A stretch of DNA of 64,000 nt from Escherichia coli (GTDB lineage: Bacteria > Pseudomonadota > Gammaproteobacteria > Enterobacterales > Enterobacteriaceae): assembly GCF_045037415.1 (NCBI RefSeq), contig NZ_CP173438.1. The stretch is one strand, 5' to 3'. A model generated the notes under the pieces. It had not been told where the DNA came from and ran no database searches. It saw only the letters and a list, made by a program, of their open reading frames with translations. How positions within the stretch are numbered: the stretch's first letter is position 1; the number at the start of each line of letters is the position of its first letter. This document shows, in pieces, positions 9,104-51,269 of the stretch. The position numbers were made by a program, and so were the translations under genes.

Positions 9104-9129
9104 TTCTCCCGATGTCCTCAATTGAAATG

Positions 9130-9158
9130 AACCCGATGATCTGCGCATCGGGTTTTTT
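9130..9158 (+). terminator. intrinsic terminator after the motAB-cheAW operon
   Basis: Hairpin aacccgatgatctgcgcatcgggtt followed by a T6 run. Confidence 0.5.
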
Positions 9159-9247
9159 ATTTCAATTTCGCGGCGGGTGGCATCAGCAATAAAGTTTCCC
9201 CCCTCCTTGCCGATAACGAGATCAACTTGTTTTCAGGAAGGTGCCTT

Positions 9248-20543: not shown

Positions 20544-21299
<756 letters not shown>

Positions 21300-21344
21300 T
21301 TTTTACCGTTGCATCATGTCGCCCAATATGATGCTTGCTCGTAC

Positions 21345-21378
21345 CAGGCCCCTGCAATTTCAACAGGGGCCTTTTTTT
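21345..21378 (+). terminator. intrinsic terminator after cutC
   Basis: Hairpin caggcccctgcaatttcaacaggggcc followed by a T7 run. Confidence 0.45.
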
Positions 21379-37024: not shown

Positions 37025-37325
37025 ATGATCATTTCAAGACCAAATATTGATTCTGCAATTTCGGGACGTTACACTGTCTCCGCACCTTATAAAGCGGGTG
37101 CCGGGATTGGCGTCCTGAAATTGTCAACGGCGATGTATGACGCGCCAGCGTCTTTTTTATCGTCCGCATTTGCTCACATCCAGATTATGGTGGGCTGGGC
37201 GGGGGCACCGAAAGGTGCGCCGGTTCTCCGTTGACGCCGGTTACGCCAACCCCGTCCAGTTCACCACCAGTGAAATTGGCGTTTCCGGTGGTGGAAGTTT
37301 TTCACTGTCAACGGAGGCTGCCATC
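37025..37325 (+). repeat. about 300-bp leader repeat, copy 1 (terminator-like hairpin plus GAAA-tetraloop stem)
   Basis: Direct repeat of 37685-37984; the first about 60 nt are near-identical (atattgattctgcaatt.cgggacgttacactg...accttataaagcgggtgccggg); contains gacgcgccagcgtc followed by T6, and gcaccGAAAggtgc. Confidence 0.5.
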
Positions 37326-37688
37326 ATGGCTACTGTCCTAACTTCCCCATTCCTAAAAATCGAAGTCGTCAACGGCAAGGCCGTTATTTTCTCCCTGCAT
37401 GTTGCCTGCCATTTCAAGCGCATGCACCAGAACATCGTTGACAAAATCGAGTATCTGAACTGCTCACGCGAGTTTTTTACCCGCAATTTCATACCGGGTA
37501 CTTATCACATCTACGGTGACTCCCTGCGTGGTTATTACATCACCCTTGATGGTCTGATGATGCTTCAGCTTGGGTTAAGTCTGCGCACAATGCGGTACTA
37601 CGAGAGCTGTATTGAAGCATTCCATGAGGCTGAAACCGTCCAGGGTCACTCCGCGTTCCGTCGTAATCAACGGGAGGTGCACCTATGA
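37326..37688 (+). CDS. Rha-family regulatory protein (short form)
   Basis: Start placed at MATVLTSPFLKIEVVNGKAVIFSLHVACHFKRMHQNIVDKIEYL... behind a GGAGG Shine-Dalgarno; the Rha N-terminal pattern parallels the next gene. Confidence 0.55.
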   Translation: MATVLTSPFLKIEVVNGKAVIFSLHVACHFKRMHQNIVDKIEYLNCSREFFTRNFIPGTYHIYGDSLRGYYITLDGLMMLQLGLSLRTMRYYESCIEAFHEAETVQGHSAFRRNQREVHL

Positions 37689-37984
37689 TCCGCCACCAGC
37701 ATATTGATTCTGCAATTCCGGGACGTTACACTGCTCAGGCACCTTATAAAGCGGGTGCCGGGCGTGGAAACCCGAAATTCAATATAGAGCACAACCGCGC
37801 TCATGCGGTTTTTTCGTGTCATGAGCATCGTTACACCCAAATTATGGTGGGGCGTGCAGGGCCAACTTCGGTTGGGCCGGGTTCTATGTTGACCGGTATT
37901 TCCACCCCTGTACGTCTCACCACCTATATGGTCGTGGAAAGCCTTGGTGGTGAGTTCATTGAATTCAACATAGGGGCTGTCACC
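37685..37984 (+). repeat. about 300-bp leader repeat, copy 2 (terminator-like hairpin plus UUCG-tetraloop stem)
   Basis: Direct repeat of 37025-37325; contains ccgcgctcatgcgg followed by T6, and ccaacTTCGgttgg; in frame with the downstream Rha ORF, so it could alternatively be coding. Confidence 0.45.
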
Positions 37985-46679: not shown

Positions 46680-47420
46680 ATGGCTAATACTGTAAAAATA
46701 TCCAGTTGTGAGTTAATCAACGCCGACTGCCTGGAATTTATCCGGTCGTTACCCGAAAATTCTGTTGACCTGATAGTCACGGACCCGCCGTACTTTAAAG
46801 TGAAGCCTGAGGGCTGGGATAACCAGTGGAAGGGCGACGATGATTACCTGAAGTGGCTGGACCAGTGTCTGGCGCAGTTCTGGCGGGTGCTGAAACCTGC
46901 CGGAAGTCTTTACCTGTTCTGTGGTCATCGCCTGGCATCTGATATCGAAATCATGATGCGTGAACGCTTCAGTGTGCTGAACCATATTATCTGGGCGAAG
47001 CCGTCCGGACGCTGGAACGGATGCAACAAGGAAAGCCTGCGGGCGTATTTCCCCGCCACAGAGCGCATTCTGTTCGCGGAACATTATCAGGGGCCGTATC
47101 GTCCGAAAGATGCCGGGTATACGGCGAAGGGCAGTACGGCTGTGTCGGACAGGGCTTACATATTGCCAAAAAACTGCTTCCGTATATCCCTAATAACGCG
47201 GGGATCCTGCTGGTACCATGCTGTCGTGGTGGTTCGGCATTCACCCAGGGCACGGAGGGGACATTCAGCGAGTCCACGGGGGCCAGTCAGGATTCGGCTC
47301 GCTGGGGAGTGGGTAAGCCGTTATATCAGGATCTGCTTTTCCGCACGAAGGCAGCATTGCAGAAAAACCCGAAAAACGTTTTGCTGGCGATATGCTGGAT
47401 GCAGGGGGAATTCGATATGA
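46680..47420 (+). pseudogene. N6-adenine/N4-cytosine-type DNA methyltransferase, N-terminal fragment only (frame lost after about 140 codons)
   Basis: Motif IV TDPPYF and ...LNHIIWAKP... are present, but no motif I follows; the frame degenerates into low-complexity sequence while the overlapping frame becomes NanS-like. Confidence 0.45.
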
Positions 47421-48562
47421 CGAATGCCAGTTACGCCCAGCAGCCAGCAGCATTTCTTGCAATGGTACAGCAGTTCCGTGCTGACCTTGCCGGGCTGGCG
47501 GCGCAGTGTCACGGTGGAAGTCCGGCATCAGTCCCCTGGATTTGTGGCGACACGACATACGTGTGGAAACAAGAACACGGTACGCAATATGAAGTGGTAT
47601 ATGGTGCATATAAAGGTAAAGAATCCCAGCAGATTTATTTTGTTCCCTTTATGACCGATGGTAGCGGAGTTAATACACCGACAAACAACCCGTCAGAAGA
47701 TCCTGATATTGCCGGGTCTGGTTATTACGGTTCGGCATCCCGAACGAACAAAAACTGGGTATCATCAAATCGCCCGACGCATTTCAGCTCATGGGCGCGT
47801 CGTGGCATTATTCCCGATCGTATGGCAACTGCTATTCTGAACGTAGCCGGTCGCACCTTAGCCTTCATTAGTGGTAAGGCACCGGAAATCAAACCCTCGC
47901 CCGGCGGCGACACTCCATCGGGGCCGTCTGATGGTGACACATCCGTTCGTACAGTCTCCCTGCTGCCGACAGCCGGAGAGGCTGCTGCGCAGGGCTGGAC
48001 CATCACCGGCGGCAGTGTTGCGCTGGAAGATGGTGTGTTTAAGGTTACCAAGCAGAGCAATAAAACTTGGTCCCTGATGCATCCGGTGGATGACGCAGTC
48101 TCCCTGCTGACACGGGGTGGCAGACTGAGCTGTAAGTTTCGACTGTCAGGCGCACTGACCAACAACCAGTTCGGTCTGGGAATTTATCTGTGTACCGATG
48201 TAGCGTTACCTGACGTCGTGGCGATGACCGGGACTGGTAACCCGTTCCTGATGTCGTTCTTCACCCAGACCACAGACGGCAAACTGAATCTGATGCATCA
48301 CAGGAAAGCAGGAAACACAAAGTTGGGCGAGTTCGGGAATTACAGTAACGACTGGCAGACGCTGGAGCTGGTGTTCACCGCCGGCAGTGCCACGGTTACT
48401 CCGAAACTGAATGGAGTGGCTGGCCCGGCATTCCAGGTCATAAAAGACAGTCTGACACTGGGGCTGAATGCGCTGACGCTGACGGATATTACCAAAAATG
48501 CAGCGTATGGCGTTGAGATAGAAAGTCTGGTGCTGGAGATAAATGCACCAGCATCATCATAA
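47021..48562 (+). CDS. prophage NanS-like sialate O-acetylesterase (NanS-p type), apparently 5'-truncated
   Basis: Frame matches recalled YjhS/NanS from ...QYGCVGQGLHIAKKLLPYIPNNAGILLVPCCRGGSAFTQGTEGTFSE... onward, plus a C-terminal extension; the N-terminal GQSN-containing region was not seen. Confidence 0.55.
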   Translation: MQQGKPAGVFPRHRAHSVRGTLSGAVSSERCRVYGEGQYGCVGQGLHIAKKLLPYIPNNAGILLVPCCRGGSAFTQGTEGTFSESTGASQDSARWGVGKPLYQDLLFRTKAALQKNPKNVLLAICWMQGEFDMTNASYAQQPAAFLAMVQQFRADLAGLAAQCHGGSPASVPWICGDTTYVWKQEHGTQYEVVYGAYKGKESQQIYFVPFMTDGSGVNTPTNNPSEDPDIAGSGYYGSASRTNKNWVSSNRPTHFSSWARRGIIPDRMATAILNVAGRTLAFISGKAPEIKPSPGGDTPSGPSDGDTSVRTVSLLPTAGEAAAQGWTITGGSVALEDGVFKVTKQSNKTWSLMHPVDDAVSLLTRGGRLSCKFRLSGALTNNQFGLGIYLCTDVALPDVVAMTGTGNPFLMSFFTQTTDGKLNLMHHRKAGNTKLGEFGNYSNDWQTLELVFTAGSATVTPKLNGVAGPAFQVIKDSLTLGLNALTLTDITKNAAYGVEIESLVLEINAPASS

Positions 48563-48712
48563 AAAGTGAGCCAGTCAAATGGAAGGTATCGTTAAACTCA
48601 CCGGTAGTGTCAGTGGGTCGTCTGAGATGCCTGCATGAGTTATCAGAGCCATCAGTACTTAACTGGTGGCTTTTTTTATTGTTGTCAGCTTCCGGATAAC
48701 GGGAGACGGGGT

Positions 48713-48928
48713 ATGTACCAGATGGAAAAAATCACAACAGGTGTGTCATACACCACGTCAGCGGTGGGAACGGGCTACTGGTTCCTGCAGTTGCTGGACA
48801 GGGTTTCCCCGTCTCAGTGGGCGGCAATAGGCGTGCTGGGGAGTCTGCTGTTTGGGCTGCTGACATATCTGACTAACCTGTATTTCAAAATCAGAGAGGA
48901 CCGTCGTAAGGCTGCACGGGGAGAGTAA
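48713..48928 (+). CDS. S: holin, phage 21 S-like pinholin
   Basis: ORF 48635..48928; [71 protein letters not shown] resembles S21; tandem Met starts (MYQM) and a GGGAGACGGGG Shine-Dalgarno. Confidence 0.8.
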
Positions 48929-48932
48929 TTCA

Positions 48933-49283
48933 ATGACTCAAAACTATGAACTGATTGTGAAAGGGATCCGCAATTTTGAGAATAAAGTTACGGTAACTTT
49001 AGCGTTACGGGACAAAAAACGCTTTGACGGTGAAATTTTTGACCTGGACATCTCGCTGGACCGTGTTGAAGGTGCCGCGCTGGAGTTTTATGAGGCAGCA
49101 GCCAGAAGGAGCATCAGACAGGTCTTCCTGGATGTTGCTGCCGGGTTATGTGAAGGGGATGAGCAGTCGCCGGAAAAGCGCCCCGTAATTTTAGAGGCGC
49201 AGAATGTATGGATAACCTACAAAGGAAAGCTACCGGGAAGAATTACTGGTTCTCTGAAGACTCCTCCGGAATCACAACCTTAA
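48933..49283 (+). CDS. hypothetical protein inserted between holin and endolysin
   Basis: 116-aa ORF with no recognisable motifs. Confidence 0.4.
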   Translation: MTQNYELIVKGIRNFENKVTVTLALRDKKRFDGEIFDLDISLDRVEGAALEFYEAAARRSIRQVFLDVAAGLCEGDEQSPEKRPVILEAQNVWITYKGKLPGRITGSLKTPPESQP

Positions 49284-49346
49284 GTCACTGACCGGAACAG
49301 ATAAACCTGTCCGTGGGCAGAAACCGATAAATCCTGATAAATATCC

Positions 49347-49880
49347 ATGAACACCAAAATCAAATACGGCCTGTCGGCTGCCGTTCTGGCGCTGATTGCC
49401 GCTGGTGCGCCTGCGCCTGACATTCTCGACCAGTTTCTGGATGAAAAGGAAGGTAACCACACCACGGCATACCGTGATGGCGCGGGTATCTGGACCATCT
49501 GCCGCGGTGCCATCCTGGTGGATGGCAAACCTGTCGTTCCGGGCATGAAGTTGTCGAAGGAAAAATGCGACCGGGTTAACGCCATTGAGCGTGATAAGGC
49601 GCTGGCATGGGTGGAGAAAAACATCAAAGTGCCATTGACCGAACCCCAGAAAGCGGGGATCGCGTCATTCTGTCCGTACAACATTGGTCCCGGTAAGTGT
49701 TTCCCGTCGACGTTTTACAGACGAATTAATGCTGGCGATCGCAGGGGAGCATGTGAGGCGATTCGCTGGTGGATTAAGGACGGTGGCAGAGACTGCCGTA
49801 TTCGTTCAAATAACTGCTATGGACAGGTCTCACGGCGTGACCAGGAGAGCGCGCTGGCGTGCTGGGGAATTGACAAATAA
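49347..49880 (+). CDS. R: SAR endolysin (lysozyme, GH24-like) R
   Basis: 177-aa ORF; N-terminal weakly hydrophobic Gly/Ala-rich signal-arrest-release segment (YGLSAAVLALIAAGAPAP) followed by a lysozyme-like domain. Confidence 0.8.
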   Translation: MNTKIKYGLSAAVLALIAAGAPAPDILDQFLDEKEGNHTTAYRDGAGIWTICRGAILVDGKPVVPGMKLSKEKCDRVNAIERDKALAWVEKNIKVPLTEPQKAGIASFCPYNIGPGKCFPSTFYRRINAGDRRGACEAIRWWIKDGGRDCRIRSNNCYGQVSRRDQESALACWGIDK

Positions 49881-50039
49881 GCAGAATATTTTGTTGAAAA
49901 ATGACGTTGGCTAATACGGACGGATAACACGAAATCCTGAGAACTGGCAAAACCTAAGTGAATAAAAGTAAAAACCCCGTTTGTTGGCTGCAAGCGGGGT
50001 TTTGTGTTTCCTGACTCTGGAAAAGTCAAAGGAGAAAGT

Positions 50040-50177
50040 GTGTTTGATTTTAGCAAACTGATTCGGGAGATTCGAGTGATGGCTGAAAAATTATCCACCT
50101 GGAAGTTCATTCTTATCTGGCTGGTGTTTGTGATTATGGCCTCCGGTTATTTCATCGGTCAGATACGCTGGTGGTGA
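50040..50177 (+). CDS. possible small membrane protein between R and Rz
   Basis: GTG start after an AAAGGAGAAAG Shine-Dalgarno; product contains the hydrophobic stretch KFILIWLVFVIMASGYFIG; below the ORF-track size cutoff. Confidence 0.25.
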   Translation: MFDFSKLIREIRVMAEKLSTWKFILIWLVFVIMASGYFIGQIRWW

Positions 50178-50178
50178 A

Positions 50179-50646
50179 ATGAACCGCGTACTGTGCGTGG
50201 TCATCATTGCCCTGCTGGTGGCCTGTGGTGCGCTTAGTCTGGGGCTGAATCATTACCGTGATAACGCCATAACCTACAAAGAGCAGCGCGATAAAAAAGT
50301 CAGTGAGCTGGAGCTGGCAAATGCAACCATTACTGATATGCAGCAGCGCCAGCGTGATGTTGCTGCACTTGATGCCAGATACTCGAGGGAATTAGCCGAT
50401 GCGAGAGCTGAAAATGAAACTCTTCGCGCTGACGTTGCCGCTGGTCACCGCAGCCTGCGGATCAACGCCACCTGTCCAGGTCCCGTGCGTGAAGCCACCG
50501 GCACCGCCCGCGTGGATAATGCAACCGGCCCCCAACTGGCAGACACCGTTACACGGGATTATTTCACCCTCAGAGAGCGGCTGATGACGATGCAGAAGCA
50601 ACTGGAAGGGGCACAGGACTATATCCGCACTCAGTGCCTGAAATAA
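50179..50646 (+). CDS. Rz: i-spanin Rz
   Basis: 155-aa ORF MNRVLCVVIIALLVACGALSLGLNHYRDNAITYK... closely resembles lambda Rz. Confidence 0.82.
   Translation: MNRVLCVVIIALLVACGALSLGLNHYRDNAITYKEQRDKKVSELELANATITDMQQRQRDVAALDARYSRELADARAENETLRADVAAGHRSLRINATCPGPVREATGTARVDNATGPQLADTVTRDYFTLRERLMTMQKQLEGAQDYIRTQCLK
50414..50584 (+). CDS. Rz1: o-spanin Rz1 (lipoprotein) embedded in the +1 frame of Rz
   Basis: MKLFALTLPLVTAACGS...CVKPPAPPAWIMQPAPNWQTPLHGIISPSE closely resembles lambda Rz1, including the lipobox cysteine and proline-rich region. Confidence 0.72.
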   Translation: MKLFALTLPLVTAACGSTPPVQVPCVKPPAPPAWIMQPAPNWQTPLHGIISPSESG

Positions 50647-51269
50647 GTTTTGCTGATGCGCGGTATTGTCGCCGTATCCCCGCATTAACAGAGACCGCAG
50701 CCCGACAGGGAGACTCCTCTGCGCGAGTGTGCGGGGATAATCAAAAACGATACACACCGGGGTTTACCGCGTTAACGGAGCGCGGCGTTGTCCCCTCATA
50801 GTCGCCTGTCCGGTGCGATGGTGGAAGAAGCCGGATGTTTATCACTATTAATTGATGACACAGAAATGGATTCATTGAATTTCAGCACGTTTTTGTATTC
50901 GTGTTATTGAACATCTGTTTATTTTACTTTTAACATATTGATAATAAAAAGAGCTGTAAATCTTTAGATGAGTCGATTTTGTCCGGGGAAGTTCAAATGG
51001 ATTTTATGCTGACGGTTTCTGGTGTGGTTATCCTGTCCATTGCTTATACTGCAGATAAATATGGCTGCCATTTGTTATCACGTATTGGCGCTTATTGTTC
51101 GTTGATGCTGATTTTCTCGTCGCTTTTTTTTGAGTAAGTTATATTAATTATAACAAATAATTTTCTGTGTTATTTTTTCAGGCTATCCCGTCAGAGGGGA
51201 AGCCTGTACTGCCAGGGAGCGAATGGAAAACTGATGTGTCCGGTAACTGCGTGTTCTGTGAACACCATG

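Follow-up and report, generated by a model that had tools for sequence, protein, structure and literature searches.

The lysis region of the Escherichia coli sequence that we analysed (NZ_CP173438.1; the whole stretch of 64,000 nt is called the window) has the layout of a lambdoid lysis cassette, with genes for an S21-type class II holin, a YdfR/DUF1327 protein, the endolysin R and the spanins Rz and Rz1. Between the endolysin gene and Rz lies a gap of 298 nt that holds, in this order, a conserved upstream segment, a terminator-type hairpin (HP1) with a U-rich tail, a second and weaker hairpin (HP2) that includes a Shine-Dalgarno sequence, and an open reading frame (ORF) of 45 codons (Table 1).

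Table 1. Features in and around the endolysin-Rz gap; positions are those of the window
Feature	Position	Strand	Remarks
S21-type class II holin gene	48713-48928	+	Context; lambdoid lysis cassette, 48713-50646
YdfR/DUF1327 gene	48933-49283	+	After the holin gene
Endolysin gene R	49347-49880	+	Phage_lysozyme; SAR-type hydrophobic N-terminal segment
Upstream conserved segment	49885-49961	+	Endolysin stop to HP1, by alignment of E. coli, Salmonella SPN3UB and IMG/VR sequences
HP1	49971-50003	+	Terminator-type; A-run, CCCCG...CGGGG core, start of U-run; 14 bp
U-rich tail	50000-50009	+	TTTTGTGTTT (also UUUUGUGUUU), directly 3' of the HP1 stem
HP2	50007-50035	+	Weak hairpin, UUUCCUGACU pairing with AGUCaaAGGAGA; −7.6 kcal/mol
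Shine-Dalgarno AAGGAG	50029-50034	+	5 nt before GTG 50040
45-residue tail-anchored membrane-protein gene	50040-50177	+	phrog_6632; WP_000459345.1
Junction TGGTGGTGAaATG	50169-50181	+	ORF stop, then Rz ATG at 50179, 1 nt apart
i-spanin gene Rz	50179-50646	+	Context
o-spanin gene Rz1	50399-50584	+	Embedded in Rz

We judge the features of the gap to be more than chance because the gap is matched in 2016 of 5426 complete E. coli genomes (this count is of matches to the leader region; matches over at least 80% of the gap, leader and ORF together, were found in 870) and in 52 phage records. It is 100% identical in a prophage of E. coli strain Ecol_AZ146, and 95–97% identical in H-19B, CP-1639 and many Stx1 and Stx2 phages. 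In the Qin prophage of K-12, which served as the empty-site comparison, the gap is absent, the endolysin and spanin genes being abutting or overlapping; in the Salmonella phage SEN34, the phage's own endolysin gene directly abuts Rz, with no insert. Given this adjacency of endolysin and spanin genes in both, the arrangement in the window is an insertion. The first ~80 nt of the gap, the upstream conserved segment with its GGAUAACACGAAAUCC mini-hairpin, are found only in copies located between endolysin and Rz and are missing in SEN34, L187 and other copies outside lysis regions.

The initial annotation had seen a stem-loop followed by a T-rich stretch at this place, and the predicted fold bears it out. 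The arms of HP1 (49971-49984 and 49990-50003; AAAACCCCGTTTGT and GCAAGCGGGGTTTT) enclose a loop at 49985-49989 and form 14 pairs, two of them U.G, with a folding energy of −21.6 kcal/mol (z = −3.8; none of 200 shuffles was equally stable). With its GC-rich stem-loop and a 3' U-rich tract on the transcribed strand, for which the family consensus is (C/U)UUUCUGUUUC, HP1 has the sequence features of an intrinsic terminator. The minus strand folds less stably, at −14.4 kcal/mol, a difference of 7 kcal/mol, and across the family G.U pairs outnumber A.C pairs by 17 to 7; the excess of G.U pairs and the greater stability of the plus strand point to a function as sense-strand RNA. To judge from its 5' A-run and 3' U-run, HP1 could also stop antisense transcription. 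A longer lower stem, AAAGCG/CUGUUU, is predicted in Salmonella and was rejected as a family feature, its G-C pair being lost in E. coli and E. fergusonii.

By its pattern of substitutions, the ORF behind the hairpins is a real small membrane-protein gene conserved at the protein level. Its product, VFDFSKLIREIRVMAEKLSTWKFILIWLVFVIMASGYFIGQIRWW, is read from the GTG at 50040 to a TGA stop at 50175-50177. Of the two starts first proposed, this GTG stands: conservation at the protein level extends to residues 2-13, the 45-residue product is also the one given by PGAP and phrog_6632, and an in-frame stop six codons upstream of the GTG in the Salmonella orthologue fixes the start there. The other, an ATG at 50088, does not; the ATG inside the frame is codon 14, at 50079. 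The good Shine-Dalgarno noted at the outset is present at its 5-nt distance from the GTG. Compared with 45-codon orthologues from Salmonella and E. fergusonii, dN/dS was 0.126, 0.085 and 0.152, with synonymous sites near saturation and changes mostly at third positions ([15,6,21] and [7,1,17] by codon position); conservation in related phages, named at the outset as a check on the ORF, is thus found at the protein level, at a dN/dS of 0.09–0.15. AlphaFold2 predicts a helix at residues 4-17, a break at a conserved Leu-Pro/Ser and a helix at 20-44 (mean pLDDT 81.5); in this prediction, the N-terminal helix is amphipathic and the C-terminal one, ending in RWW, is a membrane helix. The single hydrophobic 17-mer, starting at residue 23 with a mean Kyte-Doolittle value of 2.5, agrees with the transmembrane-like segment of the initial annotation.

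The protein matches phrog_6632 with E = 1.4e-29 (residues 13-57 of the 57-residue frame to positions 1-45 of the 45 in the profile), a family also matched by a divergent allele in L004/L007 (E = 1.8e-13). PGAP calls the ORF in some genomes, and its call in Ecol_AZ146, WP_000459345.1, is 100% identical; CAH23245.1, a 'putative bacteriophage protein' of phage CP-1639, belongs to the same protein family. None of these three entries gives a function or mentions the leader. A profile search of 1.8 billion representative proteins found 47 clusters of 42–54 residues that share the motif SKLIRELRxMxEKLPxW(K/R)F ahead of a membrane segment, and the named members, from E. coli, E. albertii, E. fergusonii, Salmonella, Burkholderiaceae, Canicola (Pasteurellaceae), Neisseria and Pseudomonas phages, are all labelled hypothetical. 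The 80 loci in our narrow alignment carry identical proteins and are uninformative on diversity; some E. coli copies of the ORF are frameshifted, in keeping with decaying prophages. Searches of Pfam, NCBIfam and PHROGs gave no holin, antiholin or lysis family, the PHROG hits being all of 'unknown function' and the only Pfam match, Epiglycanin_C, being at chance level (E = 0.19). PADLOC defence models matched none of nine small proteins of the superfamily, a PDB sequence search with the small proteins gave nothing meaningful, and full-text searching of the literature turned up no paper that describes the ORFs or the leader.

One could still take the hairpin for the 3' terminator of the endolysin module, or for a mosaic boundary, and the ORF for a chance frame: the first 129–156 nt past the endolysin stop are present in far more E. 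coli genomes than the ORF, and most phage records leave the ORF unannotated. Such a reading is scarcely credible and, on the comparisons made here, is already contradicted by a dN/dS of about 0.1 with saturated synonymous sites, a 45-codon length kept across genera, a family of 47 representative clusters, and a hairpin that accompanies the ORF also where no endolysin gene is upstream.

Ahead of the ORF family, in phages of E. coli, Salmonella, Pseudomonas, Burkholderiaceae and Pasteurellaceae, stands a leader of ~85 nt composed of the two hairpins. HP1 consists of the A-run, CCCCG, a variable inner stem and loop, CGGGG and the (C/U)UUUCUGUUUC tail; HP2 follows ~10 nt on and pairs a pyrimidine stretch with the Shine-Dalgarno region, and the start codon comes 5–8 nt past HP2. 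Among 13 family members that were picked by protein similarity alone and lie in unrelated contexts, 12 have both hairpins directly upstream. We aligned 31 leaders over both helices: 87.2% of the cells are paired, against 41–59% with the partners slid; changes on both sides of a pair occur in 61 cells, against 11–33; and the covariation score of 0.260, against 0.087–0.136 for slid partners, was reached by none of 500 shuffles. The pair at the base of the HP1 stem is A-U, G-C and C-G in 14, 14 and 2 of the leaders, and the inner pairs are of three to five types. The covariance model and part of the alignment came from a scan that required CCCCG...CGGGG, so the invariance of this core is partly built in; the same core is also seen at loci selected by protein similarity.

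It is covariation that supports HP2, because its single-sequence folding is weak, with z-scores from +1.0 to −3.3 across the family and −0.5 in the window. Its stem occurs as CCUUG/CAAGG, CGUUA/UAACG, CCUUCUG/CAGAAGG, UCCUAU/AUAGGA and UUCC/GGAA, and six of the ten HP2 pairs show double changes. In the predicted fold of the window sequence, the AGGAGA of the Shine-Dalgarno region is buried in HP2.

Within the window, the covariance model finds one full copy of the leader (49962-50045; 77 bits, E ~1e-16), the reverse strand of which scores 32 bits. At 45 bits or more, 43 of 44 hits are followed by a small membrane ORF of this type; among the 39 distinct proteins, 23 have WW at the C-terminus. 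Scores of ordinary terminators and of reverse-strand hits lie mostly at 24–41 bits, with one reverse-strand hit at 45.6 (L104). A scan of IMG/VR for the 5' half of HP1, blind to the ORF in that downstream sequence was ignored, returned many generic terminators without such an ORF, and every match with the UUUCUGUUUC tail and HP2 led into a protein of ~45–65 residues that has its membrane segment at the C-terminus. Conserved non-coding sequence in the leaders is confined to HP1, HP2 and the Shine-Dalgarno: a consensus scan gave no sense-strand promoter between R and the ORF, and nothing promoter-like is conserved in the 31 leaders. On these sequence comparisons, hairpin and ORF are one unit, and the hairpin belongs to the ORF and not to the endolysin gene, because the leader accompanies the ORF also where no endolysin or spanin gene is nearby.

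The leader is not among the known RNA families that we searched. Rfam 15, scanned over 49700-50400 at gathering scores and permissively, gave no family, including AgvB, AsxR, STnc100, IsrK and C4; the top match near the site was the rimP leader, on the minus strand and at 28 bits against a cut-off of 47. AgvB and AsxR were rejected also on their published sequences, which differ. A 2026 preprint has placed the prophage sRNAs PasA and PasC at the gap between esterase and holin, with the order esterase-PasA-holin-lysozyme; they were rejected as the identity of the leader, as they map to that gap and not after the endolysin. In the window, the corresponding gap (48563-48700), between a nanS-p-type esterase gene (47021-48562) and the holin gene, contains a terminator-like hairpin at 48645-48673.

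The leader is shared by other families of C-terminally anchored proteins, of 43–65 residues. In E. coli, matches to the gap break off at one of two points, the end of the U-tract (129 nt) or the Shine-Dalgarno (156 nt), and beyond these breakpoints lie different ORFs of 28–60 residues, each with a single C-terminal hydrophobic segment; one to four of them stand in tandem, tightly packed and some overlapping by GTGA, and they belong to phrog_1115, 4493, 3246, 4906 and 12997, all of unknown function in PHROGs. The endolysin-Rz junction is a hotspot for the exchange of small membrane-protein genes; L004/L007 (2656-3141) and L005/L006 (2657-2985) have two to four different ones there. In L003 (2652-2690), L140 and L200/L218, the start placed by the leader opens only a mini-ORF of four to eight codons; its stop and the start of the real small membrane-protein gene share a GTGA, and this suggests translational coupling inside the cassette. 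At L186 (1001-1198) and L188 (3951-4148), two small membrane ORFs have behind them a 65-residue protein with a lipobox-like LSGC or LVGC; it may be a small lipoprotein, perhaps o-spanin-like or another outer-membrane factor. Whole cassettes also occur in tandem, two in E. fergusonii and three in a Burkholderiaceae prophage. In L015 (2418-4884), three cassettes of a leader and an RWW-ending ORF lie on one strand just upstream of terminase genes and alternate with toxin-antitoxin modules, ParE-type and YafQ/RelB, of the opposite strand.

At the 3' end of the cassette, the ORF ends, as first described, 1 nt ahead of the Rz ATG, its TGA reaching to 50177. The two final Trp codons together with the stop make up GGUGGUGA, a Shine-Dalgarno-like sequence for Rz. 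In most cassettes, the ATG of the next gene comes 1–7 nt past the stop and UGGUGG is at the place expected of its Shine-Dalgarno. The ORFs ending in WW have TGA as the stop in 18 cases, TAA in four and TAG in one; since RWW is kept with TAA and TAG stops, it is a feature of the protein and not just a nucleotide motif. We rejected the idea of RWW as a mere by-product of the Rz Shine-Dalgarno on the same ground, and RWW is kept also in L016 though no spanin gene or closely spaced start codon lies downstream.

At the endolysin/i-spanin site, the cassette is found in E. coli, Salmonella and E. fergusonii, beside three different combinations of holin, endolysin and spanin. In SEN34, it has baseplate genes on both sides, for the spike and for the wedge; in Pseudomonas phage YMC11/02/R656, it lies after minor tail genes; in L162, among tail genes ahead of the gene for a very large protein, the beginning of which, in our reading, resembles a lambda J-type tail-tip protein; in L102, a Canicola prophage, between head genes; and in the Burkholderiaceae prophages L015 and L016, before terminase genes and among toxin-antitoxin modules. 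The orientation of the cassette is that of the late genes in every case. Late operons of the named phages that we looked at are of lambda type; SPN3UB, SEN34 and the E. fergusonii prophage carry a Q-like gene upstream, and the Pseudomonas phage has a gene in the Q position after NinG.

It is thus unlikely, in our view, that the peptide is an accessory specific to lysis, that is, an antiholin-like, releasin-like or spanin-regulating peptide with a hairpin that tunes the ratio of endolysin to spanin. A lysis role would fit the frequent location between endolysin and spanin genes, beside three lysis-gene families in three hosts, the arrays of one to four such ORFs at this junction in E. coli prophages and the single nucleotide between the ORF stop and the Rz start; it would not fit the baseplate, tail, head and terminase locations, where a lysis-specific role finds no support. 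The same family with the same leader stands among the baseplate genes of SEN34, where endolysin and Rz abut, as well as in the tail, head and terminase/toxin-antitoxin settings of the other phages, and the family searches gave no lysis-related match. The distribution of loci therefore suggests a cassette that is not specific to lysis. Of the small membrane modulator of lysis first proposed, the membrane-protein gene remains, and the role in lysis becomes one of several candidates and not the best supported. The second proposal, an attenuator lowering spanin expression, gives no reason for the hairpin being kept where no spanin gene follows; a terminator in a Q-antiterminated late operon should be read through anyway. 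Accessory membrane proteins of lysis cassettes such as P2 LysA, the Mu gp25 releasin and antiholins are similar in their position by endolysin and spanin genes and in membrane anchoring; the ORF protein is much smaller and occurs also far from lysis genes, and the separation from these proteins was made with family models (Pfam, NCBIfam and PHROGs) and not by comparison of individual sequences.

Extra DNA between late genes that are adjacent in relatives, often coding for a small membrane protein and spreading horizontally, also calls to mind phage morons, reportedly the subject of Juhala et al. 2000. A moron is by definition transcribed on its own, from a promoter that belongs to it and up to a terminator behind the gene, and HK97 gp15 is a superinfection-exclusion moron. 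As a moron for lysogenic conversion, for example by superinfection exclusion in the manner of gp15, the locus would use the hairpin as an insulator from neighbouring transcription. Insertion between genes adjacent in relatives, the small membrane-bound product and the occurrence in moron-rich spots of tail operons and beside toxin-antitoxin modules are all as expected of a moron; an own promoter and a downstream terminator are lacking. No promoter is conserved in or ahead of the leader, the terminator-type hairpin is upstream of the gene, the Shine-Dalgarno is predicted to be masked, PADLOC gave no matches, and the 3' end of the cassette, unlike that of a moron, supplies a Shine-Dalgarno for the next gene. 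We consider a moron of this type distinctly improbable.

The predicted occlusion of the Shine-Dalgarno is shared with the type I toxin mRNAs hok, tisB, zorO and aapA1, as is a peptide of ~30–50 residues with one membrane helix. A locus of this kind would combine the occluded Shine-Dalgarno with an antisense RNA ending at the bidirectional-looking hairpin, and the small hydrophobic peptide, the symmetry of the A-run and U-run in HP1, the reverse strand of which still scores 32 bits, and the toxin-antitoxin modules that are the neighbours in L015–L017 would be in line with it. The sole minus-strand promoter match, however (50162-50133; 9 of 12 positions), falls on codons that differ in Salmonella; unrelated ORF families stand behind the same leader, and an antisense promoter would need to recur in each; and the G.U pairs favour the sense strand. 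The family searches detected no similarity to the hok, tisB, zorO and aapA1 toxins, and the cassette differs from their mRNAs in lying inside phage late operons and in having no conserved antisense promoter that we could find. We give little credence to the locus being of type I.

We lean, with some reserve, towards a self-contained, promoterless plug-in cassette between R and Rz, the peptide of which is made only from antiterminated late transcripts. Lambdoid late operons have intrinsic terminators, tR' and those upstream of stx, that are expected to stop unmodified RNA polymerase and to let the Q-modified enzyme pass, and HP1 is like them in its GC-rich stem and U-tract, its sense-strand orientation and the Q gene upstream; it is unlike them in not standing at the head of the operon and in being linked to, and moving with, one small gene. 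In a lysogen, stray transcription past S and R would stop at HP1, and the peptide would not be made. After induction, Q-modified RNA polymerase would read through HP1, HP2 would keep translation of the peptide low, and ribosomes finishing the peptide gene could reinitiate at Rz with UGGUGGUGA as its Shine-Dalgarno. The peptide would then enter the inner membrane late in infection, with its N-terminus inside, and would be an accessory late function, one that fits into a late operon at many points, not a core component of lysis. We infer each of these steps from sequence: the stop at HP1, its read-through by Q-modified polymerase, the masking of the Shine-Dalgarno by HP2 and the coupling to Rz. 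With an upstream terminator of its own and a masked Shine-Dalgarno everywhere, leaky expression is probably harmful, and this fits a membrane-active peptide; the peptide looks toxic, its toxicity being our assumption.

More tentatively, the locus may represent a new kind of cassette for Q-type late operons. If so, a terminator gate and an anti-Shine-Dalgarno hairpin at the 5' end and a donated Shine-Dalgarno at the 3' end would make the cassette insertable between any two tightly packed late genes with both left intact, and the conserved ends would let recombination exchange one membrane-peptide allele for another. In that case the ~85-nt leader is a new cis-regulatory RNA motif, present in phages of Enterobacteriaceae, Pseudomonas, Burkholderiaceae, Pasteurellaceae and Neisseria, and the peptides are a new superfamily of late-expressed, tail-anchored membrane effectors. 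The gate model would also explain how phages hold potentially harmful membrane peptides safely in the lysogen until antitermination, and would offer a route to the insertion of genes between packed or translationally coupled neighbours without polarity.

Whatever its function, the cassette is widespread and under-annotated, the leader region being present in the 2016 E. coli genomes and in Stx1 and Stx2 phages, H-19B included, and a covariance model of the leader would reveal a class of missed small membrane-protein genes. In Shiga-toxin phages, an altered timing of lysis or state of the envelope late in induction could bear on toxin release.

Elsewhere in the window, a 46-residue hydrophobic ORF (50997-51137; PGAP WP_000347013.1) lies in AT-rich DNA after Rz, without a copy of the leader, and is perhaps a further small membrane-protein moron. 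At 37082-37927, matches to isrK and C4 antisense RNA reach the Rfam gathering score in two tandem pairs, a P1/P7-type immunity RNA arrangement inside the prophage. MicL sRNA (21071-21378, plus strand) and C0465 RNA (9123-9200, minus strand), both also at the Rfam gathering score, mark this part of the window as host chromosome.
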